Below, one piece after another: positions 8,470 to 58,606 of a DNA stretch of 64,000 nt. The stretch comes from Patescibacteria group bacterium (GTDB taxonomy: Bacteria > Patescibacteriota > Patescibacteriia > UBA1558 > GWA2-36-10). The notes under the pieces are model-generated. The model ran no database searches, was not told the origin of the DNA, and worked only from the letters and a program-made list of their open reading frames with translations. The stretch covers positions 137,911 to 201,910 of the forward strand of contig JBAYIQ010000001.1 of the NCBI GenBank assembly GCA_041665545.1, given 5' to 3'. The position numbers and the translations under genes are program-made. How positions within the stretch are numbered: the first letter of the stretch is position 1; every line of letters starts with the position of its first letter.

Positions 8470-11400
8470 TTACATTGGCGATGGATGACTGCCAGGTGGA
8501 AACTTGTTAATAACACCCCTAACCGTGCTTTTAATAGACTCTGCTCCTTTTTTCAAAAAAGCTTGTCGCATAGCATTATCATCCAGCTTCAAAGCATCAA
8601 CCTTATGATCACCATCAGTATCAATCAAATAATGATCCGACCTTAAAGGCCAAACACCGGTATGATATTTCTGAACCAGAGCATACTCATCACCCATTTT
8701 CACTGGTACCCAATGACCAGATGGTATATCTTTGACTTTATCAAAACTATCAAGGGCCGAAGCTTCAAAGCCATGCATGTTTTCGGCAATAATTTGCGGA
8801 TTGCTTAAATCAAAATGTCCCGAACTTAAATCTATTTTATCACCACGCTTCAAAGCATTAATAAATAAATTAGTTTTCTCTTCAGACCAGCCGTGATCTC
8901 TAACATAATCATGTACTAATCCCGACAACTGTTCTTGATTACCACTGGCCACTACCTTAGCCACCAATTCATCTAGATGACCGGAGTTATTTGCCGCCTC
9001 ATATAGACCATGATTATAATCCCCGCCCTGTGTTAAAAATGTTTCCATTTGTTGTTGAGCAGCTGCTTGGGTAGCGGCCTCGGCAGCTTGAGCTGTGGCT
9101 GCTTCGGCGGCTGTTTTAGCTGCTATTTCAGTATCTACCAAATGCTGAGCACTTTCTTTAGCGTGATTTAATACATTGGCCAATTGATCTGAACTTATTG
9201 CTTGATGCGAATCAGCCAAGGTAAATGAACCATCAGCCAGTCTATCTACAGCCTGGCCATTGAATGTCCACTCATGCACAGAGCCATTAGGACTCAAAAA
9301 ATCTGTGCCAAAACTTCTAACCTCATGAGACACGACATCAACATTTTCTGTAGTTAAACGGACGCCAGCTTTGGCGGCTGCTTCTAAAGCGTCATTGTTG
9401 GCTAGTATGTTTGCCTCTCCACCGGCAGCAGCCATAGCATCAGCTCCGGCTTGTAAATGATCAATGGAATCCGAATGGCCAAGTACGCTGCTCAAATCGA
9501 TATTCTCACCAGGTATCAATTGATCAATATCGTGATGCAAACCAAATGCTTCTGGATGCGCGGCTGCGCTGTCTTTGACAGCGTCTATCATGTGAGTTTG
9601 TTTGGCCTCACCCAAGGCGCTCCATTTTTCATCACCCATTTGCTCGTGTACCTTGGCCTCAATAATTTTCCATAACGAATCACCTTTTTTTACTTTTACC
9701 ACAAAATCAATGTTTTTCGTATTCTGCTCAACTGCCTGTTCTGCTGCTACTTGAGTAGAATTAGTTGCGGCTTCATTAGCAGCATGAGCGGCTTGTTCAG
9801 CAGCATCAGCAACAGACTTAGCCATCATTTTTGCCGCCATTATATTAGAATAAATGCCAGCACCAACACCCAGACCAATAGATACGCCTTGCCTAATCAT
9901 TGACTTGGTACGATATTTATCAACCTCTGGTATCAGCTGTTCAGCACGTTCATCTTCAGTCTTTCCTTTGAGCACGTTCAACAAACGATTTGCGGTTTCT
10001 TGTTTTTTTTGTTCAGCTGAATCTTCTGTCCCCGCGACCTCTTCTTTCCCCTTTTCTTTTTGCCCGGCCTTTTCTTTGGTCTTATCTAAAACTGACTCTT
10101 TTAATTTTTCATAATAAATCTTTTCAAGAGTCTTTACTACTTCAGACTGAGCTGCTCCAAAGCGACCAGCTTCGGCCACTCCTACACCTTTTTCCAAGCC
10201 CATCCCCCTGAGGCGAGCCAACTCTACACCCAAATCTGATAATGATTTTTCCTTGAGGCTAGCTTCAAAAACATGTAACAATCTATCATGATTATTTTTA
10301 TCTTTCTCTTTATAAAAATTATACCCATGAACCTCGTCAATCAAACCTTTTTGTCCTAATCTCTTGGTTTTGGTATCCATCAATCCTTCGGCCGTCATAT
10401 AAGTACCACCACCAGAGGTAATGGTTCTACCAGCCACAAACGCTGAACTAGCAAAAACATTGGAAGCAACGGCATTTGTTAGACTACCCAATATACCACC
10501 GCTAGCAAAAGTAGCACCGGCACCAACGGCCATTAAGCCAATACCAGCTACCAGTCTGGCTTTACTATGTCTCTTCCACCATTCTTTAAACTTGTTCATG
10601 GTGTTTTTGTCGCCTGACTCTGCTAGAGCATCAACATTGGACTCCTCTTTTTGCAAATATTTAATATAAGCCTCGGCCAATACTTTTGGATCTAGTTCTC
10701 CACCAGCTTTCATGGCCTCAATTATCTCAATAATCTCGCCATGCTTTAATGATTCATATTTATCATGAGCTGAATCCAATTCATCTTGCGCCTCTTCTTT
10801 GTATCCACCAATCAAAAAATTACGATTCTTGCTAAATATTCTTTTTCTCTTTTTAACCAAATCAAAATATTTTGCTCGAGCATCATCAAAAGTAGCAATT
10901 TGCTCTGCTGTTCTTTCTGGTAAAATCACTGTTTTTTCCGGCTTTTGTCCAGACTCAGTCTTGGGACCTGGAACTGGTTCAGAAACAACTTCAGGGGGTG
11001 TTTCTGGACTCGTAGCTGCTGGTTTTATCGTTTCTGGCTCGGGATTAACAATCGGCTTTTTCTCAGCACCATTTTTTAATTTATTTATTTCGTCTTCAAT
11101 TTTTCTTATTCTGGCCTCAGCCAATAAGACTGCCTGCTCCAAAGCATCGGGTACTAATAAATCTTGTTCTTCTTTTGATTTCTGCAAAATAGCTGTGGCT
11201 AAGTCTGGCTTACCTAATAATTGAGCGGCTTCTTGCAAAGCACTTAATTTAGTTTCCCTAGTTTTGGCTGAATTAATTTCGGTAATCAAATCTTTCAATG
11301 GAGCTATCAATCTCTCCATTTGGGCTGTTTTTATTTCAACTTCCAAGTCTCTGATTTTATTTTCAACTGACAACTGGGCTTGCTCCAAGGTAGAGCTAAG

Positions 11401-12162
11401 TTCTGTGGATTGATCAGCAAATCTAGGATCATTAAGTAAAACAGCGGCTTGCTCAAGAGATCTTTGTTTCAATGTACGGTCACTTTTTTGTATGGCAATA
11501 TTTATTTCGTCAAGTAAGGCCTTCAGACGACTTATGCTGCCCTTAATCCTAGCATCCCTAATATCGTGCTTTGCTTCAAAAATTACTGGCTCATTCTCCA
11601 TTGTATCGGTCACAATTGCCTCGGACGATTTGATGTTATCTTGAACAGGAATTTCTAAGTTAATAACTGGCTCGCTGGGTTTTTCATTAATCAGTAAATC
11701 TCTATTATGTAATTTTAAAACCGCTTCCTTGAGATGTGATTCTAGGGTACCGGGTATTTCTTTTTCGTTTATCTTACCCCGACGAAAAGCATTTATCCTA
11801 TCCGTCACCATGTCCGCATCAATCTCCTTCATATGCTGACCAATCTGCGAGTACAATTCCAACCAATCATTGGCCCCTGAATAATCAAAATTTTCAAACT
11901 CTGGAATTTTAGGTGCTTCTGGTTTTCCATCTAAAACGAGTTTCACTTCTTTTTTACTAACATTTGCTAATACATCAACTTCCGCTGTCAAATCAGGCTC
12001 ATCAGAACCTTCTTCTGCTCGAAAATTGGTTGCCACACCATCAATCTTCTCTATAAATTGGTTACCCTCGGCTACCACCTCTTGGTTGGAGGGTTCTGGG
12101 GCCTGCTCCTGACCAGCGGTTTCGAACACAGGAGTAACTTCTGGAGATTTTTTATCTGTCAT
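8470..12162 (-). CDS. giant membrane protein (1230 aa): coiled-coil N-terminus, Gly-rich TM segments, LysM-like motif
   Basis: long heptad-like Q/E/K-rich region; two hydrophobic Gly-zipper segments (VAGIGLMAVGAGATFASGGILG; GVSIGLGVGAGIY); VKVKKGDSLWKIIEAKV resembles LysM. Confidence 0.55.
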   Translation of the reverse strand: MTDKKSPEVTPVFETAGQEQAPEPSNQEVVAEGNQFIEKIDGVATNFRAEEGSDEPDLTAEVDVLANVSKKEVKLVLDGKPEAPKIPEFENFDYSGANDWLELYSQIGQHMKEIDADMVTDRINAFRRGKINEKEIPGTLESHLKEAVLKLHNRDLLINEKPSEPVINLEIPVQDNIKSSEAIVTDTMENEPVIFEAKHDIRDARIKGSISRLKALLDEINIAIQKSDRTLKQRSLEQAAVLLNDPRFADQSTELSSTLEQAQLSVENKIRDLEVEIKTAQMERLIAPLKDLITEINSAKTRETKLSALQEAAQLLGKPDLATAILQKSKEEQDLLVPDALEQAVLLAEARIRKIEDEINKLKNGAEKKPIVNPEPETIKPAATSPETPPEVVSEPVPGPKTESGQKPEKTVILPERTAEQIATFDDARAKYFDLVKKRKRIFSKNRNFLIGGYKEEAQDELDSAHDKYESLKHGEIIEIIEAMKAGGELDPKVLAEAYIKYLQKEESNVDALAESGDKNTMNKFKEWWKRHSKARLVAGIGLMAVGAGATFASGGILGSLTNAVASNVFASSAFVAGRTITSGGGTYMTAEGLMDTKTKRLGQKGLIDEVHGYNFYKEKDKNNHDRLLHVFEASLKEKSLSDLGVELARLRGMGLEKGVGVAEAGRFGAAQSEVVKTLEKIYYEKLKESVLDKTKEKAGQKEKGKEEVAGTEDSAEQKKQETANRLLNVLKGKTEDERAEQLIPEVDKYRTKSMIRQGVSIGLGVGAGIYSNIMAAKMMAKSVADAAEQAAHAANEAATNSTQVAAEQAVEQNTKNIDFVVKVKKGDSLWKIIEAKVHEQMGDEKWSALGEAKQTHMIDAVKDSAAAHPEAFGLHHDIDQLIPGENIDLSSVLGHSDSIDHLQAGADAMAAAGGEANILANNDALEAAAKAGVRLTTENVDVVSHEVRSFGTDFLSPNGSVHEWTFNGQAVDRLADGSFTLADSHQAISSDQLANVLNHAKESAQHLVDTEIAAKTAAEAATAQAAEAATQAAAQQQMETFLTQGGDYNHGLYEAANNSGHLDELVAKVVASGNQEQLSGLVHDYVRDHGWSEEKTNLFINALKRGDKIDLSSGHFDLSNPQIIAENMHGFEASALDSFDKVKDIPSGHWVPVKMGDEYALVQKYHTGVWPLRSDHYLIDTDGDHKVDALKLDDNAMRQAFLKKGAESIKSTVRGVINKFPPGSHPSPM

Positions 12163-12166
12163 ATAC

Positions 12167-12333
12167 TAAAAATTACTATTAATTTTATTTAATATGTCAT
12201 CAATTTCCGCTTTATTACTGGCCTCACTTTTCTTTTGACGTCGACTAATGGCTTCTTGTTTCAATTTATTTACAGCCAACAAAAAATTGTTATAAATCTC
12301 TTTAATTTTAGAAATCTTTTGGTTGTTATCCAT
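12167..12333 (-). CDS. possible small ORF (55 aa, coiled-coil) not in ORF track
   Basis: ATG at 12333 to TAG at 12167; MDNNQKISKIKEIYNNFLLAVNKLKQEAISRRQKK...; no RBS evidence. Confidence 0.2.
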
Positions 12334-12337
12334 AAAA

Positions 12338-12640
12338 TTAAACAATGGCCGTCTTGACTTTGCCCATTTCCACTTTCAAATCATCAATAATACTTTGATA
12401 AATTTCTTTATAATCCGACACTTTGGTAGCAATAAATTGATCGGCTTTTTCGGGATCATTGTCTCCTAATAATTTATCCAGGGCTTGTTTATCACCTTCT
12501 GACAAGCGAGTTAAAACCACACGGTTGAAACGAGTGGTTACTAATTCCATAATTTGCTCTTGAATTTCCTGCTTTTTTTCTTCAGGCAAGTCTTCTAGAC
12601 CAAATTCTTTAAAAAAATCTAATTGATTTGTGGAGTCCAT
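12338..12640 (-). CDS. hypothetical small acidic protein
   Basis: 100-aa ORF in AT-rich context, good codon usage consistency. Confidence 0.45.
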   Translation of the reverse strand: MDSTNQLDFFKEFGLEDLPEEKKQEIQEQIMELVTTRFNRVVLTRLSEGDKQALDKLLGDNDPEKADQFIATKVSDYKEIYQSIIDDLKVEMGKVKTAIV

Positions 12641-12696
12641 AAAAATAAGTATTAGCTTAATAATAATACGACTTAATTATAAAATCTTTCGGCAAA

Positions 12697-12746
12697 AAAA
12701 ACAAGCCCCAACCTCTGCACGCGTTGTGCAAAAAAGGTTGGGGCCC
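12697..12746 (-). terminator. GC hairpin terminator of GC-rich cassette A
   Basis: gccccaacctctgcacgcgttgtgcaaaaaaggttggggc immediately after stop of 12763..14079. Confidence 0.5.
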
Positions 12747-12762
12747 GTACGAATCTTGGAAA

Positions 12763-14079
12763 CTAGGCGGCTTCCGCACCCTCGGCAATGTAGGGTGCGA
12801 TCGACCCGAGCTGTCTGTCCACCAGGACACGCAACTCGCTGCGACCAGCGAAATCGGTCTTAGCCACAGCATCGACGGCCAGTTTGACGGCCGAGCCGAT
12901 ATCGGGATTATTGAGAGCGGTGACCAGAGGCATCAGCTCAGCCAGACGAGCATCGCCCTTGCCCTCGGCAGTGATCACTGCGATCCTCTTGTCGAGGGCG
13001 GTCTTGACGACATCGATACGCTTGGCCGCCAGCTCGTTCAGTCGAGCCTGAACCTCTGGGCTGGGTGTCGGGTCCTCAATCAGAACACTCTTTACCTTAT
13101 AGCCCGAAACGCTTTCCAGCCGGGCAATGGCCTCATCCCAGTTCGCGTCTTCAAAGACGCCGCCGACTTGGATCTTCTCCAGAGTTTGACCCTTAAGGAG
13201 AACCCGAAAGTCAGCACCGAAGATTTCACTCGCATACTTGACCAAGCCGGCATCAGTCCGCACCTCGGGCGGAGCAGACCAATAGGCATTCAGATTCTCC
13301 GGCCCATCAAGAATGGGGATGAACTTAACATTTACATCTCCCCCGACCTCGATATCGGGTTCACCATCAAGACCTGGGATCTTGCCACCAAGAGTAGGTA
13401 TTTTCTCAGTGACACAAGAGAGTTGTAAACCACGTCTTTCCAGGACGACATTGAATTCGAGACCTGGGGCATTCCTAGGAATCTTCGTCCGGTGGAAACC
13501 GTTGTAGAAGACATACTTGTCGAACATCCACCAGGCGTGAAAGCAACGGCGTCCGAACAGTTTCGGCGTCCATAGTTCCTGCTCCGGAACCTGAATGTTC
13601 ATGATGGCCATCGTAGATCCCGTGGCCAACGACCAAAAAATCACGGTCACCATGTGACCAAATGTCAGGATACCCAAGGTCAGGCACACGCCAGTCACAA
13701 TTGTCGAATAGAATGCCCAGGTGTCTCGCTTGTTGCCAAGCCACGGCCGCGGTTTGTAGGTGTAGTAGGCCTGTAGCGCCGTAATAGCCGCAACGAGCAG
13801 TGCCAACACCACACGAAACCACGGGAAATTGTGGGAGACCTCCTTACCAGCTGTCTTTCCAACTGTCACAGCTGTCTTTACGTCCTCAACTACAGCCGAC
13901 GGCGCAAAAAACAGCCAGTGATGGTTCCAGGAAGCGGCCAGCACTCCCACAGCCAGCAAGGCCGTGGTAATGATCGCTCTCCACCCCACCTTCAGCTTTG
14001 TGCTGTTATTGACCAGCGCGGCAACAACGGACACGATGATCGCAATCACCGCATCAAGGACGAACTTGTTCTGAAACAT
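12763..14079 (-). CDS. SPFH/band-7 domain membrane protein (HflK/C-flotillin-like), GC-rich horizontally acquired gene
   Basis: multi-TM N-terminus; C-terminal KAVDAVAKT..RIAVITAEGKGDARLAE SPFH-like region; GC content far above flanks; own consensus promoter and AAAGGAGGGG SD. Confidence 0.6.
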   Translation of the reverse strand: MFQNKFVLDAVIAIIVSVVAALVNNSTKLKVGWRAIITTALLAVGVLAASWNHHWLFFAPSAVVEDVKTAVTVGKTAGKEVSHNFPWFRVVLALLVAAITALQAYYTYKPRPWLGNKRDTWAFYSTIVTGVCLTLGILTFGHMVTVIFWSLATGSTMAIMNIQVPEQELWTPKLFGRRCFHAWWMFDKYVFYNGFHRTKIPRNAPGLEFNVVLERRGLQLSCVTEKIPTLGGKIPGLDGEPDIEVGGDVNVKFIPILDGPENLNAYWSAPPEVRTDAGLVKYASEIFGADFRVLLKGQTLEKIQVGGVFEDANWDEAIARLESVSGYKVKSVLIEDPTPSPEVQARLNELAAKRIDVVKTALDKRIAVITAEGKGDARLAELMPLVTALNNPDIGSAVKLAVDAVAKTDFAGRSELRVLVDRQLGSIAPYIAEGAEAA

Positions 14080-14189
14080 GACCCCTCCTTTGGGGTAATA
14101 GGTTAACGATTGACTATCTATACATTTCCAAGACTTGTCAACGAACTTGCCAAAAACCTATGTTTTGTGACAATATATTATTATATCAC

Positions 14190-14218
14190 TTTTTTCTATT
14201 TTAGTCAAGAAATAGCTG
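14190..14218 (-). promoter_or_regulatory. consensus promoter TTGACT-17-TATAAT for GC-rich SPFH cassette
   Basis: minus-strand ttgactaaaatagaaaaaagtgatataat; region 14090-14390 also carries multiple TTGACA/TTGTCAA copies. Confidence 0.5.
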
Positions 14219-14388
14219 CTCCCCAATATTTGACACCAGGGCTTGTCAATTTAATACTAAAGTTTGATGTAACTACGTCTCGCACGCCAAAGCAAACTTT
14301 AATTAATAAATTAAATTTTTTTATAGGCCACTATCCCTCCTTAAGTGTCAAGCATTGGATTTTAACGCGACGGCGTGTCAATATTTTT

Positions 14389-15249
14389 CTACTTCTGACA
14401 AATTGGACAAAAATGTGTGCCTCTACCAGCTATTTTGTGTTTTTTTATTTCGGTTTTTTTACACTTTAGGCAGAGTTGTTTAGCGCGACCATAAACTTTC
14501 AAATATTTTACATAGGCCCCCCCGTTGCCATCTGCAGTCCGATAATCACTGAAAGTAGTGCCACCAAATTTTACTGCTTTGTTCATGATATAGTGACAAG
14601 CCTGGAAAATCTTTTTCTTATCTTGATCCCCAAGTGTGCTAACTCGCCTATCAGGCCTGACACTAGCCCGAAAACAAATTTCATCAGCATAGATATTGCC
14701 AATGCCGGAAAAAATCTGCTGATTCAATAAAACGCTTTTTAAGACACCACTTTTTTTATTTATGGCTGACAAAAAATTCGGTAACGTAAAATTTTTAGTC
14801 AATGGCTCGAGTCCATATTTTTTTCTAATTTCTTCTTTAGCCAAATGACTGACTATTTTGAAATAACCAAATTGCCGCAGATCATTGTAAAACAAAATAG
14901 ATTTATCAGAAAAATATAATATAATATGAGAATATTTATTGGGCAACTCTTGACTGATTGGCAAATTATGACCACCAGCCACAATATTTTTTTTATTTTT
15001 ATAGATCAATTGACCGGTCATTTTCAAATGCACCAGCAAATAATCATTACCTTTTTTTAATTTAAAAATTAAGAGCTTACCAACTCGATCTACCTTGGAA
15101 AAACTATTGCCTACTAATTTTTTTCTAAACTCAAAAATATCACCATGAATCTGTTTGATTTTGTGGATCTCTATTTTTACAATCTTTTTATTAACAATTT
15201 TGGCTTGCAAACCACGCCTAATTGTCTCAACTTCTGGTAGTTCTGGCAT
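14389..15249 (-). CDS. mutM: formamidopyrimidine-DNA glycosylase (Fpg/Nei family)
   Basis: N-terminal MPELPEVE, C-terminal zinc finger CLKC..CPIC. Confidence 0.85.
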   Translation of the reverse strand: MPELPEVETIRRGLQAKIVNKKIVKIEIHKIKQIHGDIFEFRKKLVGNSFSKVDRVGKLLIFKLKKGNDYLLVHLKMTGQLIYKNKKNIVAGGHNLPISQELPNKYSHIILYFSDKSILFYNDLRQFGYFKIVSHLAKEEIRKKYGLEPLTKNFTLPNFLSAINKKSGVLKSVLLNQQIFSGIGNIYADEICFRASVRPDRRVSTLGDQDKKKIFQACHYIMNKAVKFGGTTFSDYRTADGNGGAYVKYLKVYGRAKQLCLKCKKTEIKKHKIAGRGTHFCPICQK

Positions 15250-15337: not shown

Positions 15338-17557
15338 TTAATATTGGTTTAGTACTGTATCTGTCACATTATAAATCTTATTTCCAGAATATTTTTTCAA
15401 TTCTTCCAAACTGACTATATGGACTTTTTTACCATTTATGATGACATATATTTTGCCATCATTGGCTTTTAACAAAGCGCCGTCGGAATAAAGCTTTATA
15501 CCATATATTTTACTAATTTTTCCTTGAGCGGCTTTATTATCAATTTTGGTTTCAACATATTGAGCTATTACTTCATCTGTCACATTGTATATTCTTTGAG
15601 CAAAATAGTTGTCATATAGATATTGCCAATTTGGTATATGATAAATCTGGTTACCAAGTACGTGATAAACTTCTGGTCCACAACCACGCACAAGAGATCC
15701 GGTAATAAATTCCATTACGCCTTTGATGTCACCATCGATATCTGGTTTACAGACGACTTCTTTGATACCCAAAACTTGTGGGGGTAATTGACCCAAGGTG
15801 TTTGGCGTAGTGAAGGTGCGATCAATGTCATAAGATGTACTGTTACCGCTATCTTTGGCTCTTATTTGATAATGATATGTGGTACTAGGCAACAAATCAG
15901 TTAGCGCCATAGTATGAGTAGCGTGATAATTGGTGCCTTGGTATTCGGAGCCATAAGAAGTGGAAGTACCATACAGCATCCAAGTCAGAGATTGACGAGT
16001 AGTTTCCCAAGTAATGTTGGCTGAATTAGTAGTTACGCTACTTTGAACATTAAATATATTGATGGGAATAAATCCGCCACCACCGCCACCACCACCGCCA
16101 GACGGTCCTGGCTGAGGATTAGGAGGCGTTATGGCAGTACACCTAGTACTACATACATCTGATCCATTGGGACCAGCGTCGCATTCTTCAGTACCAGTCA
16201 CTTCTCCATCACCACAAAATTGATCTACTGGAGCTGGGCACTGTAGCATTGGCGGTACAAAGTGGGCATAGCAAGCAACTTGATTATTTGGGATAACTAT
16301 TTGAGCGGCTAAGCTTACATCAGTCTGGTCAATAACTTCATCGTTATTTAAATCATAAAGAATATTATAATTACTATCGCCTGCTTGAGACCCGTCTGAA
16401 TCCTTTATACCCTGCCATAATCCCTGACACCAACCAATGTTGGTATAATTTTCGCAACTAAAGTGAAACTGGTCATTGGGATCTTCAAACTGCTGGTAAC
16501 ACTGGGCATCATCACCAGTGCCATGCATCAATGTCACAAAGGCCAAATCACTTAAATTAATAACTTCGTCGTTATTAATATCAGCTACATCATTATATAC
16601 TAAATGTGTTGAAGAGTTGGGATCAAAATAAGCTTTCAAAATGCCTAAAAGTGCACTGCACCAAGGAGCATAAGGTTTTGGCTCAGGTTCTTTTATTTTA
16701 CAAAGACGAACATCGTCAAGAAAAGTGCCATAACTATCACTTGGCCCAATGTCCTTAAAAGCTATTTCTGTATTTGTGCCATCAGCAGTAAATACGTAAT
16801 CAGAAGCGACCCAATTACTTTGAGCAAGTGGCGCAATACCAGTAGCCGGACCATTGGTAGCTACCTGATTACCATTAACTTCTACTGCTAGATTATTTTG
16901 CTCAGCAGCAATATCATGGCGGGCAGCAAATGACCAAAATAATTTATATTGTGCACCTACTTCTGTGACTATATTTTGTATTACACGTGTTGACTGGTCA
17001 CCATCAAGCTCAGAATATTGTAAGCCATCAGCTGCTATATTAGCACTCCATCCTCTGTGAAGCTCTAAAGTAGTAAGTGAATTATCAGAAACCTTTTCAA
17101 TTACCCAACCAGACACGGAGCTCATTATCTGCCACAAAGAACTATCTGTCACCATTGGCTCTTCAAAACTACCGTTTACAAAGAGATTGCTTTCTCCAGA
17201 ACATTCTTCTATCTCAATGAGTGTGCAGTTGGCCGTACAGGTAGCGGACCCACTTGGACCATCATCACATTGCTCACCTGGATCCAAAACTCCATTTCCA
17301 CACACTGGAGGAGGTACGGAACATTGTCCAGCTGTATCACCATGCTCTAAATGACCAGGAACGGCCTCTGGAGCCACCTTTATTTCCACCGCGCCTTCAC
17401 TAGTAGTGTGGCAAATGGAAACCAAAGTAATGTTTTCACTAATTAATTGATCACTAGTATCAATAGGCTGTTCAGCAAAGGCCGTTGCCCCACCTGACCA
17501 AACTATTACTGACAAGACGGCAAAACTAACAAAAATATTTTTTAATAATTTTTTCAT
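15338..17557 (-). CDS. secreted multi-domain surface protein (Cys-rich CxxGxxDxGExCDDG repeats, dockerin/EF-hand-like D-x-N-x-D-x-V repeats, Fn3-like domain, poly-Gly linker, C-terminal IYNVTD repeats)
   Basis: signal peptide MKKLLKNIFVSFAVLSVIVWSGGATAFA; CGNGVLDPGEQCDDG and CGDGEVTGTEECDAG; DINNDEVINLSDLA and DLNNDEVIDQTDVS; GGGGGGGG. Confidence 0.6.
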   Translation of the reverse strand: MKKLLKNIFVSFAVLSVIVWSGGATAFAEQPIDTSDQLISENITLVSICHTTSEGAVEIKVAPEAVPGHLEHGDTAGQCSVPPPVCGNGVLDPGEQCDDGPSGSATCTANCTLIEIEECSGESNLFVNGSFEEPMVTDSSLWQIMSSVSGWVIEKVSDNSLTTLELHRGWSANIAADGLQYSELDGDQSTRVIQNIVTEVGAQYKLFWSFAARHDIAAEQNNLAVEVNGNQVATNGPATGIAPLAQSNWVASDYVFTADGTNTEIAFKDIGPSDSYGTFLDDVRLCKIKEPEPKPYAPWCSALLGILKAYFDPNSSTHLVYNDVADINNDEVINLSDLAFVTLMHGTGDDAQCYQQFEDPNDQFHFSCENYTNIGWCQGLWQGIKDSDGSQAGDSNYNILYDLNNDEVIDQTDVSLAAQIVIPNNQVACYAHFVPPMLQCPAPVDQFCGDGEVTGTEECDAGPNGSDVCSTRCTAITPPNPQPGPSGGGGGGGGGFIPINIFNVQSSVTTNSANITWETTRQSLTWMLYGTSTSYGSEYQGTNYHATHTMALTDLLPSTTYHYQIRAKDSGNSTSYDIDRTFTTPNTLGQLPPQVLGIKEVVCKPDIDGDIKGVMEFITGSLVRGCGPEVYHVLGNQIYHIPNWQYLYDNYFAQRIYNVTDEVIAQYVETKIDNKAAQGKISKIYGIKLYSDGALLKANDGKIYVIINGKKVHIVSLEELKKYSGNKIYNVTDTVLNQY

Positions 17558-19663: not shown

Positions 19664-19739
19664 TGGAGCCGTCTCGCGGGCTTGAACCGCGGACCTACGC
19701 CTTACCATGGCGTTGCTCTACCAACTGAGCTAAGACGGC
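19664..19739 (-). tRNA. tRNA-Thr (anticodon GGT)
   Basis: cloverleaf GCCGTCT/AGACGGC acceptor, anticodon loop ATGGTAA, T-loop GGTTCAAGCC, CCA encoded. Confidence 0.85.
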
Positions 19740-19754
19740 ATATAAATTAAATAT

Positions 19755-19879
19755 CTCGTGCCCTTCGGCTCACTCCGTTCGCTCAGGGCATTCGACTCCT
19801 TCGAGTGGTCGAAGTCCGAGGCAAAGCCGAGGGCGCAGACCATGAGCGAAGTTCCGAGCCTGCGAGGAACGGAGTCGAA
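19755..19879 (-). repeat. tRNA-3'-adjacent structured element, divergent copy 2 (between tRNA-Tyr and tRNA-Thr)
   Basis: starts CCATTCGACTCC right after ACCA and pairs with downstream GGAGTCGAATGG; shares CCATTCGACTC, GAGCGAA and terminal CGAAGGGCACGAG with copy 1. Confidence 0.55.
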
Positions 19880-19965
19880 TGGTGGGTGGAGAAGGATTCG
19901 AACCTTCGAAGGCGTATGCCAACAGATTTACAGTCTGTCCCAGTTGACCGCTTTGGTATCCACCC
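19880..19965 (-). tRNA. tRNA-Tyr (anticodon GTA), type II with long variable arm
   Basis: GGGTGGA acceptor, anticodon loop CTGTAAA, variable arm, T-loop GGTTCGAATCC, CCA encoded. Confidence 0.85.
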
Positions 19966-28094: not shown

Positions 28095-28170
28095 TGGAGC
28101 CACCCGTCGGAATTGAACCGACAACCTATGGTTTACGATACCATTGCTCTGCCAGTTGAGCTAGGGTGGC
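28095..28170 (-). tRNA. tRNA-Thr (anticodon CGT)
   Basis: GCCACCC acceptor, anticodon loop ATCGTAA, T-loop GGTTCAATTCC, CCA encoded. Confidence 0.85.
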
Positions 28171-29761: not shown

Positions 29762-30110
29762 AACGAGTTGGGGGGTGTTGGGACGCTCGAGAAGTCCTGG
29801 GGACACCTGCTAGTTGTGGTCAGGGCCCGAACTGTTTGGGCTCGCTGTAATCCCGCAAAGGTTAGCGGGTGCAGTTTATCAGACCACGGATGGCAATCCT
29901 GATCCTTGTCTGTTGGGACAATGGGGATGGACCCGTCTTATCGTCGTCCCGAGGCCTCGGGCGACCAGCTGGCAGTGCCGATTTTTGAAAAACGTTCCCC
30001 ACAGACGGTGACGTGAAGCGCTCACGTTTCCTAGCGGGGATATCCTTGGCCAGGAGAGAATACAGGCCTCGGCTTACCTTCAGGACTTGTCCTGGCACCC
30101 CCCGTGTTCC
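29762..30110 (+). ncRNA. rnpB: candidate RNase P RNA (bacterial type A-like)
   Basis: P1 pairing GGGGGGTG (29769-29776) with CACCCCCC (30096-30103); CR-I-like GAGAAGTCCTGGGG; CR-IV-like ACAGGCCTCGGCTTA (30062-30076); GC-rich about 340 nt with own promoter and terminator. Confidence 0.55.
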
Positions 30111-30116
30111 TACCGA

Positions 30117-30165
30117 TGAGGAGTCTTTGTCTACACCATGGCAAGACTCCTTTTCTTTTTGTTTA
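30117..30165 (+). terminator. rho-independent terminator after RNase P RNA
   Basis: ggagtctttgtctacaccatggcaagactcc + ttttcttttt. Confidence 0.55.
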
Positions 30166-30220
30166 AAATAAAGAAATACCGCCGTCGAACCAGTGGGTTC
30201 GATGGCGGTACGAAATGTCC

Positions 30221-30412
30221 CTACACCTTCATGCAGGGAGCGTGAGGTGTGTCGCGATGCAAGCGCAGCTTCTCGGGAGTGATGTTGTTCCCGCACTCCG
30301 CCATACTGCACTTGACGCAATGCTCGCTCTTGAGGTGCCGAAGCCCCCTTTCCGAACGCGGAAGCGTTCTCCTGTTCGCATTGTTCCCCTTGGTGACCTG
30401 CTTCTTGCCCAT
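30221..30412 (-). CDS. small GC-rich Cys-containing protein (64 aa), moron-like cassette B
   Basis: start MGKKQVTKGNN preceded by AAGGAGGG SD; Cys cluster HCVKCSMAECGNN; promoter TTGACA-17-CATAAT at 30461-30489 (minus); 14-bp GC hairpin terminator 30178-30212. Confidence 0.45.
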   Translation of the reverse strand: MGKKQVTKGNNANRRTLPRSERGLRHLKSEHCVKCSMAECGNNITPEKLRLHRDTPHAPCMKV

Positions 30413-35014: not shown

Positions 35015-35368
35015 TTGCCTGATGGCGCGATCCTCCCTGTGCGTGGTACAAGCGGCCATTCGGCCGCGCGGCGTTCGGGCTTGGCCAAACATCCAGACTG
35101 CACCTGTCCAGACCCACTTGTAGACAACGGCGAATTCCGCTGTAGACGAATGGTCGTTGACCTTAGGGCTCCTAGCCGCAATACCCGATATCGGTGGGCT
35201 CCGCTGGCTCGGTATCAGCCAGAACAACGACTATGGCGTTGTTATGAGAAATATGTGGAGGCCCAAGCGCTTGGTATTTGGCCAGCTGACCAGCCGAACC
35301 CGCCAAGGGAAGAGCCGAACAGCGGTCTAGCCGTGGCTTTGGGCCCCCTTGAAAAAAGAGCGTACTAA
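35015..35368 (+). CDS. GC-rich hypothetical ORF (cassette C); could alternatively be noncoding
   Basis: GGGAGGA SD before ATG; GC far above flanks; terminator ctgccaaaattagcag+T at 35421-35450. Confidence 0.3.
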   Translation: MPDGAILPVRGTSGHSAARRSGLAKHPDCTCPDPLVDNGEFRCRRMVVDLRAPSRNTRYRWAPLARYQPEQRLWRCYEKYVEAQALGIWPADQPNPPREEPNSGLAVALGPLEKRAY

Positions 35369-50836: not shown

Positions 50837-51253
50837 TCACTTGCTCACACTGGGAAAATGCGGGTCACGGTACTCGTCATTGTCGTCTTTGACAACGAAA
50901 GGAGAAACATCCTCCAAGCGCAACTCGGTGGTGCAGATGAAGGGTGACGACTCGACGACACGCGGTGGTTGAAACAGATTGGCCTCAGGAGTCAGCTTAG
51001 AGGCCAAAAAGTCCCGAATCCTCCTATGCCAGAGCAAGCCCAATGGCTTCTTGTTCTTCCTTTGCCAGACCAACTCCAAGCGCCAAGGCCTTTCCTCAGC
51101 CGTGATCGACACCTCCAAGCCACGATGGCTGATGTACTTCATAATCTCCGGCAACAGTAGCCCAAGCTGCTGACCCAGATGCCTCCTGACAGCCAAGGTG
51201 TTGACATGACGACCGTTAGCGAACTTAATGTCAGCTCTTTTCTTACCGACCAT
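50837..51253 (-). CDS. GC-rich hypothetical protein (cassette D), 138 aa
   Basis: AAGGAGGAA SD before ATG; promoter TTGACA-17-TATGTT at 51303-51331 (minus); GC-rich. Confidence 0.5.
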   Translation of the reverse strand: MVGKKRADIKFANGRHVNTLAVRRHLGQQLGLLLPEIMKYISHRGLEVSITAEERPWRLELVWQRKNKKPLGLLWHRRIRDFLASKLTPEANLFQPPRVVESSPFICTTELRLEDVSPFVVKDDNDEYRDPHFPSVSK

Positions 51254-51507: not shown

Positions 51508-51584
51508 TGGTGCGCCCAGTAGGATTCGAACCTACGACCGTTTGCTTAAAAGGCAACTGCTCTACCAGGCTGAGCTATAGGCGC
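51508..51584 (-). tRNA. tRNA-Lys (anticodon TTT)
   Basis: GCGCCTA acceptor, anticodon loop CTTTTAA, T-loop GGTTCGAATCC, CCA encoded. Confidence 0.85.
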
Positions 51585-51800: not shown

Positions 51801-52700
51801 ATGGATTACCCGCGGAACTCGGTCTGCATCTATCACAGTGCGGACAATGACGGCGCTTGCAGTGCGGCCATCGCCAAGTTGGCGGCTCGTGTCAGACTGA
51901 TCCCCTGGAATTATGGACACCCCATACCCTGGGAGAGAATACCCGTCGGCGCTACGATCTTTGTGGTCGATCTGCTGCTCACCAGCCAGAACGACAACAG
52001 TGGTTTCCAGGACATGGAGCGCCTGCGCAAGATCGGTAAGCTCGTCTGGATTGACCATCACGACAAGGCCATCAACGACGCCAAAGTGTTGGGTTTGGCC
52101 TATGATGGCATCCAGCGAGTTGGTCAGGGCGCTTGCGCTTTGACCTGGGAATATTTCTTCCCCAACAAGCCCATGCCCGAAGCAGTCCGGCTGATCAGTA
52201 ACTTCGATGTCTTTGACCATAGGGAGGTAAAGACAGTCCATTTCCAGTACGGCTTGCGTGCTTGCAATGCCAAGCCCTGGATGGACATTTGGAAAGATCT
52301 TCTTAAGCCACCCTTCCAAAGCGATGCTCTGGTCAACCAGCTGGTCAGTGATGGTATCCCCATCACCAAGTACCTGACCTTGGAATTCGCCCGCTACATG
52401 CGAGTCTGTGGCTTCGAGACTATTCTCGACGGGCACCGTGCCATTGCGGTGAATCGTGCTCTGGTCAACAGCCAGATCTTCGAATCTGTACACAACCTCG
52501 AAGACTATCCGTTGCAGATGTACTTTTACTGGAGCTCTGACGGCTCATGGAAGGTGAGCATGCGTTCGCCCGACGGTCGCGTGAACTGTGCAGAACTCGC
52601 AGCCAAGTACGGTGGTGGCGGACACAGCCGAGCAGCCAGTTTCGTGTGCCAGGAACTGCGCTTTGAACTCAAAGGGCGACCTGACGCCGATCCTGACTGA
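51801..52700 (+). CDS. DHH/DHHA1 phosphoesterase (NrnA/DhhP-like nanoRNase or cyclic-dinucleotide phosphodiesterase), GC-rich cassette E
   Basis: motif I HSADNDGA, motif III WIDHHDKA, DHHA1 GGGGHSRAAS; GC-rich; TGGAGGA SD. Confidence 0.7.
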   Translation: MDYPRNSVCIYHSADNDGACSAAIAKLAARVRLIPWNYGHPIPWERIPVGATIFVVDLLLTSQNDNSGFQDMERLRKIGKLVWIDHHDKAINDAKVLGLAYDGIQRVGQGACALTWEYFFPNKPMPEAVRLISNFDVFDHREVKTVHFQYGLRACNAKPWMDIWKDLLKPPFQSDALVNQLVSDGIPITKYLTLEFARYMRVCGFETILDGHRAIAVNRALVNSQIFESVHNLEDYPLQMYFYWSSDGSWKVSMRSPDGRVNCAELAAKYGGGGHSRAASFVCQELRFELKGRPDADPD

Positions 52701-55882: not shown

Positions 55883-55958
55883 ATAAAATCGTGGTTAATT
55901 TCTACCACGTGCACCTTAGCAAGACACAAGGTAAATATGGCCAATGGAGGTCCTTGAA

Positions 55959-56693
55959 ATGGAAAAGACCGAAAAGACCGCCTTTGCTGTTCTGCACATG
56001 AGCCGTCACGAATCCAGCTCGCCCCAAGCCAACTATGGCCTGGGAACACTGGGTCCCATGGACTACCGCGGAATCCCGGTTCGCTACCACCCCAATTCCT
56101 TCATGCGTGACTCCGGTTACCGCATGCTGGAAATCCAGCTCCCGAAGAACCAGAACGAAGCGGGAGTCGCGATGGCTGTCATGCACGCAGGTCAGATTCG
56201 GGGAGCCATCAGTTCCCTGCAGGATCAGCTCAACAGTCTGACACCGGAAAAGATCTCCCACTACAACCTGATGATCAACGAACTGCTTCGCAAGGGCTAC
56301 CTGATGCACAGCCAAGTCCTCTACTTCAAACCCTGGCAATCCGGTCTCGTGGCCAAGTACGGCTGGGGCATCAATGGCTCTGGTGGCATGGTCATGTTCG
56401 GACAGAACAACTTCGGACAGAGCTTCGGAGTACAGGCCGGACACCAGCTGGTGCAGGTGGTCTTCCGACCCACTCCGTACGCCGACGGACTGATCTGTCG
56501 CTACGGCTGGGGCATCACCGTATGCCAGCCGGAAAGCATCAAACGTGTGCTGAGTGGTCTGCGCAAGCAGCTCGACAACGCCGTGTTCTTCCAGGAGCAC
56601 GGCTGTCTACTCGAAGACTTCGATCGGCCGAGTCTGGCATGCCGACTGATCGCCCGTCAGGCGACCCACGCGTGCCAGCAAACCACCGCATAG
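55959..56693 (+). CDS. GC-rich hypothetical protein with duplicated YGWGI motif (alt start 55944)
   Basis: GGAGG SD 7 nt before ATG at 55959; repeats AKYGWGINGSGG / CRYGWGITVCQ; GC-rich. Confidence 0.5.
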   Translation: MEKTEKTAFAVLHMSRHESSSPQANYGLGTLGPMDYRGIPVRYHPNSFMRDSGYRMLEIQLPKNQNEAGVAMAVMHAGQIRGAISSLQDQLNSLTPEKISHYNLMINELLRKGYLMHSQVLYFKPWQSGLVAKYGWGINGSGGMVMFGQNNFGQSFGVQAGHQLVQVVFRPTPYADGLICRYGWGITVCQPESIKRVLSGLRKQLDNAVFFQEHGCLLEDFDRPSLACRLIARQATHACQQTTA

Positions 56694-56772
56694 CGAGCAA
56701 CTGCTTGCTACGGTGACAACGACAGGACATTTTCTGACGCCAAGCGTCTGAAGGTGTCCTGTTTTCTTATAT

Positions 56773-56800
56773 TGACAATAGCTATATTATATGCTATAAT
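56773..56800 (+). promoter_or_regulatory. consensus promoter TTGACA-16-TATAAT (cassette F, gene 2)
   Basis: ttgacaatagctatattatatgctataat. Confidence 0.55.
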
Positions 56801-56858
56801 ATTAAATGTACCCCAGGATTCTAGTCTCGGGTTGTTCATTTCCAAGGAGGGATTTCTC

Positions 56859-57257
56859 ATGAGTCCGAAACAGCTTGCTGCCATCCCGTTCTGCATTTTG
56901 ACCGTAGTTGCCATGTTCTTATGGGTTGCCGGTCGTCCCACTGGCAAGCCCGACACAACGCGACTCTTCTCAATTGGGACTGATGCCCATCAGGTTCCGT
57001 GTGGTGACATCGGCTACGATGCCACCTTCCGCTACTATGCCGGAAACGACACGGCGGGCGTGACGGTAGCCAATCTCAATCCCGGGCTCGTAACGATCCA
57101 TCTCATGGATCGCCTGAGCAGGGATATCTACGGACGCAAACCCGTGCGGATCAACGGTGATCAGGCCAACCTGGAGATCATCAACAACGCCACCAATGAG
57201 GTGATTTGCCGCTGGCAGATCACCATCGATCGTCAGGTCGGTGTTGCCACCCGCTGA
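56859..57257 (+). CDS. GC-rich small secreted/membrane-anchored hypothetical protein (start revised to MSPKQLAAIPF)
   Basis: AAGGAGGGA SD precedes ATG at 56859; N-terminal hydrophobic segment; track ORF start 56754 lacks SD. Confidence 0.5.
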   Translation: MSPKQLAAIPFCILTVVAMFLWVAGRPTGKPDTTRLFSIGTDAHQVPCGDIGYDATFRYYAGNDTAGVTVANLNPGLVTIHLMDRLSRDIYGRKPVRINGDQANLEIINNATNEVICRWQITIDRQVGVATR

Positions 57258-58224: not shown

Positions 58225-58301
58225 TGGTGGTCGCACCTGGACTCGAACCAGGGACCTTCGCAATGTGAATGCGACGCTCTAACCAACTGAGCCATGCGAC
58301 C
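58225..58301 (-). tRNA. tRNA-Val (anticodon CAC)
   Basis: GGTCGCA acceptor, anticodon loop TTCACAT, T-loop GGTTCGAGTCC, CCA encoded. Confidence 0.85.
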
Positions 58302-58531
58302 ATATTAATAACCAACTGCTTGTCCGCCAAAGCTCCAAGGGAGCGACGGCGGAAGCTATATGCCCTTAAATAATAAACTACCGAAAATGGCTTAGCCATC
58401 CGTAGCTCCAAATAAAAATAACTATACTTTATACGTTTTGTCATCCTACTCCGCCAGCTGGCGGATATGGATGACATCCTTCGCACCGCGAAGGATGGTA
58501 AAAACCCTTAGCATTCAAAGCTATTTTCTTT

Positions 58532-58606
58532 TGGTGACCTCTAGGGGAATCGAACCCCTGTTGCCAGGATGAGAACCTAGTGTCCTAACCACTAGACGAA
58601 GAGGCC
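58532..58606 (-). tRNA. tRNA-Glu (anticodon CTC)
   Basis: GGCCTCT acceptor, D-loop AGTGGTTAGG, anticodon loop TTCTCAT, T-loop GGTTCGATTCC, CCA encoded. Confidence 0.85.

Follow-up and report, generated by a model that had tools for sequence, protein, structure and literature searches.

The described systems closest to the gene treated here are the SPFH proteins, phage morons or genomic islets, and loci that undergo allelic replacement. SPFH proteins (QmcA, HflK/HflC, YqiK, PH1511 stomatin; Pfam PF01145) have a membrane-anchored N-terminus that is followed by an alpha/beta SPFH domain and a long helix, and their C-terminal part includes a short hydrophobic segment. Morons and islets are single genes of atypical composition with their own promoter and terminator. 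Allelic replacement is known for flagellin central domains, for pilin or capsule loci and for hsdS, where conserved 5' and 3' anchors enclose a divergent core, the breakpoints are inside the gene and the tree of the gene conflicts with those of its flanks. Gene X, the open reading frame (ORF) at positions 12763-14079 (minus strand) within a GC-rich block of a 64-kb stretch of Patescibacteria DNA, resembles all of these in the features listed, those of its protein being predicted. The whole 64-kb stretch is referred to as the window. The 438-aa product of gene X has the same sequence as the NCBI protein 'MAG: hypothetical protein WCV69_00785, Patescibacteria group bacterium', which is encoded on a 295-kb contig.

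There are also clear differences. Canonical SPFH proteins have one transmembrane (TM) segment or a hairpin, whereas the gene X protein has five predicted TM helices, is only ~12-17% identical to solved members, is encoded without an adjacent NfeD or FtsH partner gene, and belongs to a family that is limited to one Patescibacteria lineage, hypervariable and compositionally aberrant. Unlike morons, gene X is outside any prophage, has the same location in every relative examined and has no phage homologues, and its promoter and terminator are part of the conserved backbone. Unlike the known allelic-replacement loci, the variable part is a predicted cytoplasmic SPFH domain and not a surface-exposed epitope, and there is a persistent bias in GC content at third codon positions (GC3) and towards NNG codons that is not known from those loci. 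On the sequence comparisons set out below, gene X is probably an ancestral, lineage-specific gene of the Parcubacteria/Patescibacteria that has a fixed position, encodes a five-TM SPFH protein, exchanges alleles and has its GC content kept up.

Position and expression signals of gene X

Searches for homologues of gene X gave 7 matches in 5.8e9 proteins, and a profile search found 18 among 1.84e9 representatives. The genomic context was recovered for 15 family members (L001-L008, L010/L011, L012-L014, L038 and L039). All 15 loci are on AT-rich Patescibacteria contigs, and in all 15 gene X is either in the same slot or on a fragment consistent with that slot. On contigs that are long enough, the order is fpg, gene X, a DUF5663 gene, an ORF of 55-59 aa and a gene for a giant protein of 940-1667 aa, and fpg is 5' of gene X in every locus long enough to tell. 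In the window these genes are all on the minus strand, at 14389-15249 (fpg/mutM; Pfam Fapy_DNA_glyco, 1e-29, and H2TH, 1.1e-20), 12338-12640 (DUF5663), 12166-12345 (the short ORF) and 8470-12162 (the giant protein, 1230 aa, with no Pfam match). The last three are conserved downstream neighbours. Their order is the same in L001, L002, L004, L006, L007, L010, L038 and L039, while in L014 the DUF5663 and giant protein genes are kept and no 55-aa ORF was called. The Fpg proteins of the relatives range from 93% down to ~55% identity to that of the window.

At every locus the GC3 of gene X (0.48-0.73) is above that of its neighbours (0.18-0.43). In the window, the coding sequence (CDS) is 54.9% GC (0.595, 0.417 and 0.636 at the first, second and third codon positions) with A at just 11% of four-fold sites, compared with 39.7% GC for the window overall and 25-41% GC, with GC3 of ~0.3, for the immediate neighbours. 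Measured over 150 nt at a time, GC content is 0.35 before the start codon and steps up to 0.5-0.6 precisely there. The maximum of 0.60-0.63 is close to the 3' end, and the terminator marks the return to lower values. The leader and terminator are AT-rich or conserved, and the high GC is confined to the CDS. An earlier note on this DNA, made from the sequence alone, had described a block of ~60% GC in a ~33% GC genome. The windowed GC and codon usage analysis confirmed the compositional outlier and the sharp step, but the figures should be 54.9% for the CDS and 39.7% for the window.

As read from the DNA, gene X forms a self-contained monocistronic unit with its own promoter, Shine-Dalgarno (SD) sequence and hairpin terminator. 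The predicted sigma-70-type promoter at 14208-14180 (minus strand) consists of a -35 element, TTGACT (14208-14203), a 17-nt spacer and an extended -10 element, TGATATAAT (14188-14180). This TTGACT-17-TATAAT arrangement, with the TG of the extended -10, scores 11/12 in a promoter scan and is nearly invariant in 11 related loci. It is followed by a leader of ~95 nt (14174-14080, minus strand) that is conserved across loci, its first half being nearly invariant among relatives. The leader includes inverted-repeat arms, ATTGTCA (14174-14168) and TTGACAA (14141-14135), and a CCCC/GGGG mini-hairpin around the SD, and the leader motif occurs once in the window. The repeats may possibly act as operator-like DNA or as a leader element. 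Interpretation of the leader as a structured RNA or riboswitch was not supported (zero Rfam matches, RNAalifold energy of -0.53 kcal/mol, minimum free energy z-score of -1.28). The SD, AAAGGAGGGG (14091-14082, minus strand), is read from the sequence, is kept in relatives and is 2-4 nt 5' of the ATG at 14079.

At the other end, the intrinsic terminator (12744-12695, minus strand) is a two-tier hairpin (12744-12705) followed by T8, with GCCCCAACCT/AGGTTGGGGC as the outer stem and TGCAC-aacgc-GTGCA as the inner hairpin. Its RNAfold energy is -34.7 kcal/mol, and a simple terminator scan missed it because the loop is long. Across 14 related loci, 91.8% of cells in the aligned stems are paired, compared with 22-59% in slid controls, and four pairs show compensatory changes. 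Promoter, SD and terminator are thus all conserved in relatives. The earlier note had already named a consensus promoter, an SD and a GC hairpin terminator, and each of these stands.

The same note took the block to be a recent horizontal acquisition in the style of a phage moron, namely a newly acquired cassette whose promoter and terminator came with it. The sharp GC step and the autonomous promoter, SD and terminator are as expected for such a cassette. However, the related AT-rich genomes all carry the gene X family with elevated GC, which is the result that the note itself had named as refuting its reading, and even relatives with only ~55% Fpg identity have the gene, promoter and terminator in this position. 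Divergence of the promoter and terminator follows that of the backbone, not that of the CDS. The surroundings are housekeeping (fpg, dnaB, recR, argS, the ribosomal protein L21 gene and six tRNA genes are in the window) with no prophage, and the window is cellular chromosomal DNA, not phage. No relatives of gene X were found in 50,697 phage records, in IMG/VR viral contigs or in the plasmids of PLSDB. A metagenome scan with the conserved promoter pattern returned 23 chance matches on unrelated AT-rich contigs, none with fpg or a family member. The conserved synteny refutes a recent moron-like import. Calls of 'foreign' DNA based on composition are routine, and gene X, which with a GC step of 20 points and its own promoter and terminator has every look of an import, is a clean counter-example.

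Allele exchange and codon composition

Among the closest relatives, Fpg is 91-93% identical to that of the window (92% for L003 and L004), but the gene X proteins are 56-58% identical in L003, L006 and L007 (56% in L003) and only ~30% identical overall in L004. Similarly, L001 and L013 share 88% identity in Fpg and 23% in X, yet the X proteins of L001 and L003 are 53% identical. The X and Fpg trees are incongruent.

The nucleotide identity of the window to L003, L004 and L005 is ~90-95% from fpg through the promoter and leader to ~180-200 nt into gene X. In sliding comparisons it drops from 82-91% to 30-60% at ~13930-13840, remains low up to the stop codon and recovers at the terminator. The 5' 180-200 nt of the CDS (13900-14079, minus strand), ~90% identical to close relatives, mark the left anchor and breakpoint zone, and the terminator (12695-12744), where identity to the relatives returns, is the right anchor. 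P0007, the L004 protein, is a chimera with an N-terminus of the local type and the remainder from another allele class. Within one allele class (L003, L006 and L007), the number of substitutions per synonymous site (dS) is 0.24-0.38, equal to that of fpg, and the ratio of non-synonymous to synonymous rates (dN/dS) is ~0.15-0.2. The low dN/dS in these close pairs indicates purifying selection on a working protein, and the equality of dS with fpg argues that there is no in situ hypermutation. Repeat-templated variation, as in a diversity-generating retroelement (DGR), was also rejected, as no second copy of any part of 12651-14400 is in the window and the alleles diverge over the whole CDS.

These patterns indicate that the diversity of gene X arises by swapping of old alleles, anchored on the promoter and leader at one end and on the terminator at the other. 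Alleles would be replaced whole by homologous recombination, with the promoter, the leader and the first ~60-75 codons as one anchor and the terminator as the other, and very old allele classes (~20-58% identity) would be shuffled among lineages. The DUF5663 proteins, which were compared for the window, L001, L002, L004, L006, L007, L010, L014, L038 and L039, also fall into two forms of 100 aa and 111-121 aa that are ~22% identical, and their distribution disagrees with the Fpg tree. The DUF5663 of the window is 71% identical to that of L010 (100-aa form) and 22% identical to those of the closest relatives (the other form). Both forms are AT-rich.

The bias of gene X is chiefly at synonymous sites. 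AAG accounts for 84% of Lys codons, compared with 23% in the background, and TTC and ATC account for 55% and 56% of their codons, compared with 12% and 17%. In all X alleles A is depleted (0.07-0.18) and G enriched (0.18-0.35) at four-fold sites, and G/(A+G) in Lys, Glu and Gln codons is 0.59-0.82, compared with 0.18-0.39 in the neighbours. In dnaB and the L21 gene this ratio is 0.10-0.11, and because these genes deviate in the opposite sense, the bias of gene X is not the codon bias of highly expressed genes. Examination of the X mRNA for avoided k-mers found nothing beyond generic TA depletion.

A second function that demands GC-richness, namely an overlapping antisense gene, a structured RNA within the CDS or a variable region of the DGR type, was also considered. 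Long antisense ORFs are indeed present in the window (a 234-aa ORF at 12724-13428, plus strand) and in relatives. However, a null model that shuffles synonymous codons reproduces the antisense stop counts and longest ORFs in 12/12 alleles, and antisense dual coding was rejected on this basis. There are no Rfam matches at E<=5 and no template/variable repeat pair in the window, and dS of X equals that of fpg. Overall, a second function as the cause of the composition is highly improbable.

Polarized third-position changes in the type-B alleles comprise 72 from strong (G or C) to weak (A or T) and 38 in the reverse direction for gene X, compared with 35 and 32 for fpg. Gene X is therefore now losing GC, though more slowly than a background pattern predicts (~3.5:1). 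Per-site rates imply an equilibrium GC3 of ~0.45 for X and ~0.30 for fpg, a difference that is marginal (z ~1.9). At the measured rates and over a divergence this deep, a gene imported just once in the distant past would be expected to have ameliorated long ago. Gene X is syntenic across a Patescibacteria clade, and its odd composition has been kept where synonymous sites should be saturated. The GC-rich, A-poor third positions are a property of the CDS in every lineage and must be maintained by a continuing force. Two such forces were considered: a weak, gene-specific fixation bias to G/C-ending codons, especially NNG, and an unsampled, GC-richer pool of alleles. The first is the one we lean towards, because no family member was found elsewhere and because high GC extends to the resident 5' part of the CDS, and the second we regard as a weaker candidate. 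If the fixation bias is real, it would be an unusually strong gene-specific case in bacteria. Recombination alone, by GC-biased gene conversion, is weakened as the sole cause because the co-exchanged DUF5663 stays AT-rich.

In its fullest form, the pool explanation makes the slot between fpg and DUF5663 a recombination hotspot that is refilled again and again with alleles from a GC-rich source outside the sample, such as a mobile element, a host bacterium or a relative of high GC content, after which each allele decays slowly towards AT. Several observations fit. The GC content at the three codon positions (0.60/0.42/0.64) resembles that of an ordinary gene of a ~54% GC genome, the GC3 range among alleles (0.48-0.73) is as expected from unequal residence times, net GC loss is under way (72 versus 38 polarized substitutions), the X tree is incongruent with the flanks, and there are other GC-rich single-gene cassettes in the window, including at least one with almost no homologues. 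Against this, all 15 members are in AT-rich Patescibacteria contigs, with none outside the slot, in phages, in IMG/VR or in plasmids. No allele pair is more alike than its flanks, so that there is no sign of a recent transfer. High GC is also seen in the resident first 200 nt of the CDS, whose divergence keeps pace with that of the flanks, and the co-exchanged DUF5663 alleles are AT-rich. Recurrent import of this kind is possible but unlikely.

The predicted membrane protein

The N-terminal membrane module comprises residues 1-162 (13594-14079, minus strand), as defined from hydropathy, charge distribution and the helices of an AlphaFold2 (AF2) model. Five TM helices are predicted, at residues ~6-24, 31-49, 86-108, 122-140 and 143-160, and the loop at residues 57-85 is disordered and variable. 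By hydropathy and the positive-inside rule, the C-terminal domain would be cytoplasmic. Residues ~165-390 (12910-13587, minus strand) are assigned from AF2, Foldseek and the family profile as an SPFH-like alpha/beta domain with a long helix of 49 residues (341-389 in the AF2 model).

Profile comparisons connect this domain to the SPFH family. The distant member P0020 passes the Pfam Band_7 model (E 6.6e-11, 43 bits compared with a cut-off of 23.6), and four further distant members are just under the threshold at 15-19 bits. Alignment of the close subfamily of the window protein with P0020 by hhalign gave a probability of 95.5% (E 1.5e-8). Among PDB sequences, a profile of the 18-sequence family matched QmcA (3.1e-5), the Pyrococcus horikoshii (PH) stomatin (1.2e-4), human stomatin (~5e-4) and HflK (3.8e-3). 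A profile of the 7 close homologues had given just spurious armadillo-repeat matches to PDB sequences and was discarded.

The predicted fold agrees. The AF2 model built on the 18 sequences has a predicted local distance difference test score (pLDDT) of 76 overall and of 75-93 over residues 90-400, and replaced an earlier model on 7 sequences (pLDDT 56) that had borderline Foldseek E-values. Foldseek found 27 matches in the PDB at E<=1e-3, and all are SPFH-family proteins save two major vault protein entries. The families represented are stomatin, HflK/C, QmcA, erlin, prohibitin, flotillin and vault, with stomatin the best (9.9e-8). The top matches span 280-310 aligned columns, and the target-normalized TM-scores of the predicted structure are 0.45-0.52 for full chains and 0.56-0.62 for core domains. 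Together, remote homology and predicted fold support a five-TM protein with an SPFH-type domain. The earlier note's multi-TM SPFH protein is upheld in both parts, the SPFH part by profile and fold and not by a direct Pfam or NCBIfam match.

By analogy with solved SPFH proteins, the protein most likely assembles into a ring or cage at the cytoplasmic face of the membrane, and the ring or cage may organize or gate a membrane partner. It defines a family of uncharacterized five-TM SPFH proteins, with ~18 clusters in 1.84 billion representative proteins. Very little is known about the membranes of the episymbiotic bacteria that have it. In PHROGs the only match was phrog_200 'lipoprotein', for distant members. 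Literature searches on DUF5663, on SPFH proteins in Patescibacteria and on SPFH proteins in anti-phage defence found nothing relevant.

Several points weigh against the interpretation of gene X as an ancestral, allele-swapping SPFH gene of maintained composition. The sample is ~15 loci, several of which are short contigs. Membership of the SPFH family is drawn from remote homology, and neither Pfam nor NCBIfam scores the window protein: Band_7 (PF01145) gave no match even at E<=10, with noise only, and NCBIfam gave nothing. The topology, oligomerization and partner proposed for the protein are extrapolated from prediction and from analogy. No NfeD-family partner gene is among the neighbours (fpg, DUF5663, the 55-59-aa ORF and the giant protein gene), and PADLOC-DB gave zero matches at E<=1 for X, four other alleles and the three downstream proteins. 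The GC3 of gene X is above its present equilibrium, which fits episodic re-supply as well as it fits weak selection, and as dS is not reduced, any selection at synonymous sites would be weak.

The hypervariability by allele exchange suggests that the family serves in conflict or in the recognition of partners in these episymbiotic bacteria. A more speculative proposal takes this further, making gene X a composition-coded conflict gene, with a hypervariable SPFH membrane scaffold under long-term balancing selection, multiple ancient alleles that are exchanged among lineages, and a CDS actively held GC-rich, A-poor at third positions and NNG-biased within AT-rich genomes. Translation or survival of its mRNA might then be uncoupled from the AT-adapted tRNA pool or from AU-targeting nucleases, which might serve during phage attack or host interaction, and the other GC3-rich cassettes of the window that have their own promoters might be under the same regime. 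We consider this proposal improbable, and retain the simpler description of an ancestral, fixed-position gene with exchanged alleles and a maintained GC content.

Neighbouring genes and other features of the window

The spacer between fpg and gene X is 309 nt in the window and 137-153 nt in related loci. The difference is a 173-nt insertion at 14209-14381 (no strand assigned), between the fpg stop codon and the gene X promoter, that is found in this genome only. It is flanked by TTGAC on both sides and includes a perfect palindrome, TTGACA-N8-TGTCAA (14249-14230), a degenerate second copy of the palindrome and a 14-nt near-copy of the gene X leader. An SD-like TAAGGAGGG followed by a 6-codon ORF is also present. 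The earlier note had remarked on the crowding of TTGACA motifs 5' of gene X, and this was confirmed. Five exact copies are in 14136-14381, compared with 57 in the full 64 kb and ~0.3 expected locally, an enrichment of ~18-fold. Four of the five are inside the insertion and the fifth is an arm of the leader inverted repeat. No second copy of the insertion was found elsewhere in the window or in related loci. A scar left by recombination is one possibility for its nature, and a small mobile element or operator is another.

In the most distant loci, L014, L038 and L039, a gene for an SdpI/DUF1648-type membrane protein of 215-224 aa is between fpg and gene X. This gene is absent from the window and the closer relatives, and comparison rejected the possibility that the 173-nt insertion is a remnant of it. 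The giant 1230-aa protein is 32-41% identical to those of the relatives compared. Gene X is flanked on both sides by genes for very large, fast-diverging proteins. Upstream, at 15338-17557 (minus strand), is a gene for a 739-aa protein whose orthologues have weak Pfam marks for DUF4215, Dockerin_1 and Pur_ac_phosph_N. The neighbourhood looks like a variable cell-envelope region. The metagenome-assembled genomes (MAGs) that gave L006 and L008 (GTDB CAZILH01 and CAYRIU01) are titled 'uncultured Gammaproteobacteria bacterium' despite their Patescibacteria-type locus, and these titles probably reflect a taxonomic mislabel or a binning problem.

Two stretches, 29862-30320 and 35015-35368, are 54-58% GC, spread evenly over codon positions, and contain spurious ORFs only. 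Neither has an Rfam match at the gathering threshold. Four further ORFs are GC3-rich (0.61-0.74) and A-poor at four-fold sites, at 50837-51253 (minus strand) and at 51801-52700, 55944-56693 and 56754-57257 (plus strand). The ORFs at 55.9-57.3 kb each have a near-consensus promoter (e.g. TTGACA-N14-TGATATAAT from 55854) and a hairpin terminator. A 299-aa GC3-rich ORF has a weak DHH/DHHA1 match. A 249-aa GC3-rich ORF has one homologue (87% identical) in 5.8e9 proteins, in the MAG that gave L006, and this MAG is without the DHH gene and the adjacent tRNA-Lys gene. Unlike gene X, these ORFs look like strain-variable additions.

The tRNA genes of the window are at 19664-19965, 28095-28170, 51508-51584 and 58225-58606. 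Within this set, three of the six tRNAs (Thr-CGT, Val-CAC and Glu-CTC) have a C34 anticodon and read G-ending codons only, a property that bears on the frequent use of NNG codons in the GC-rich genes.

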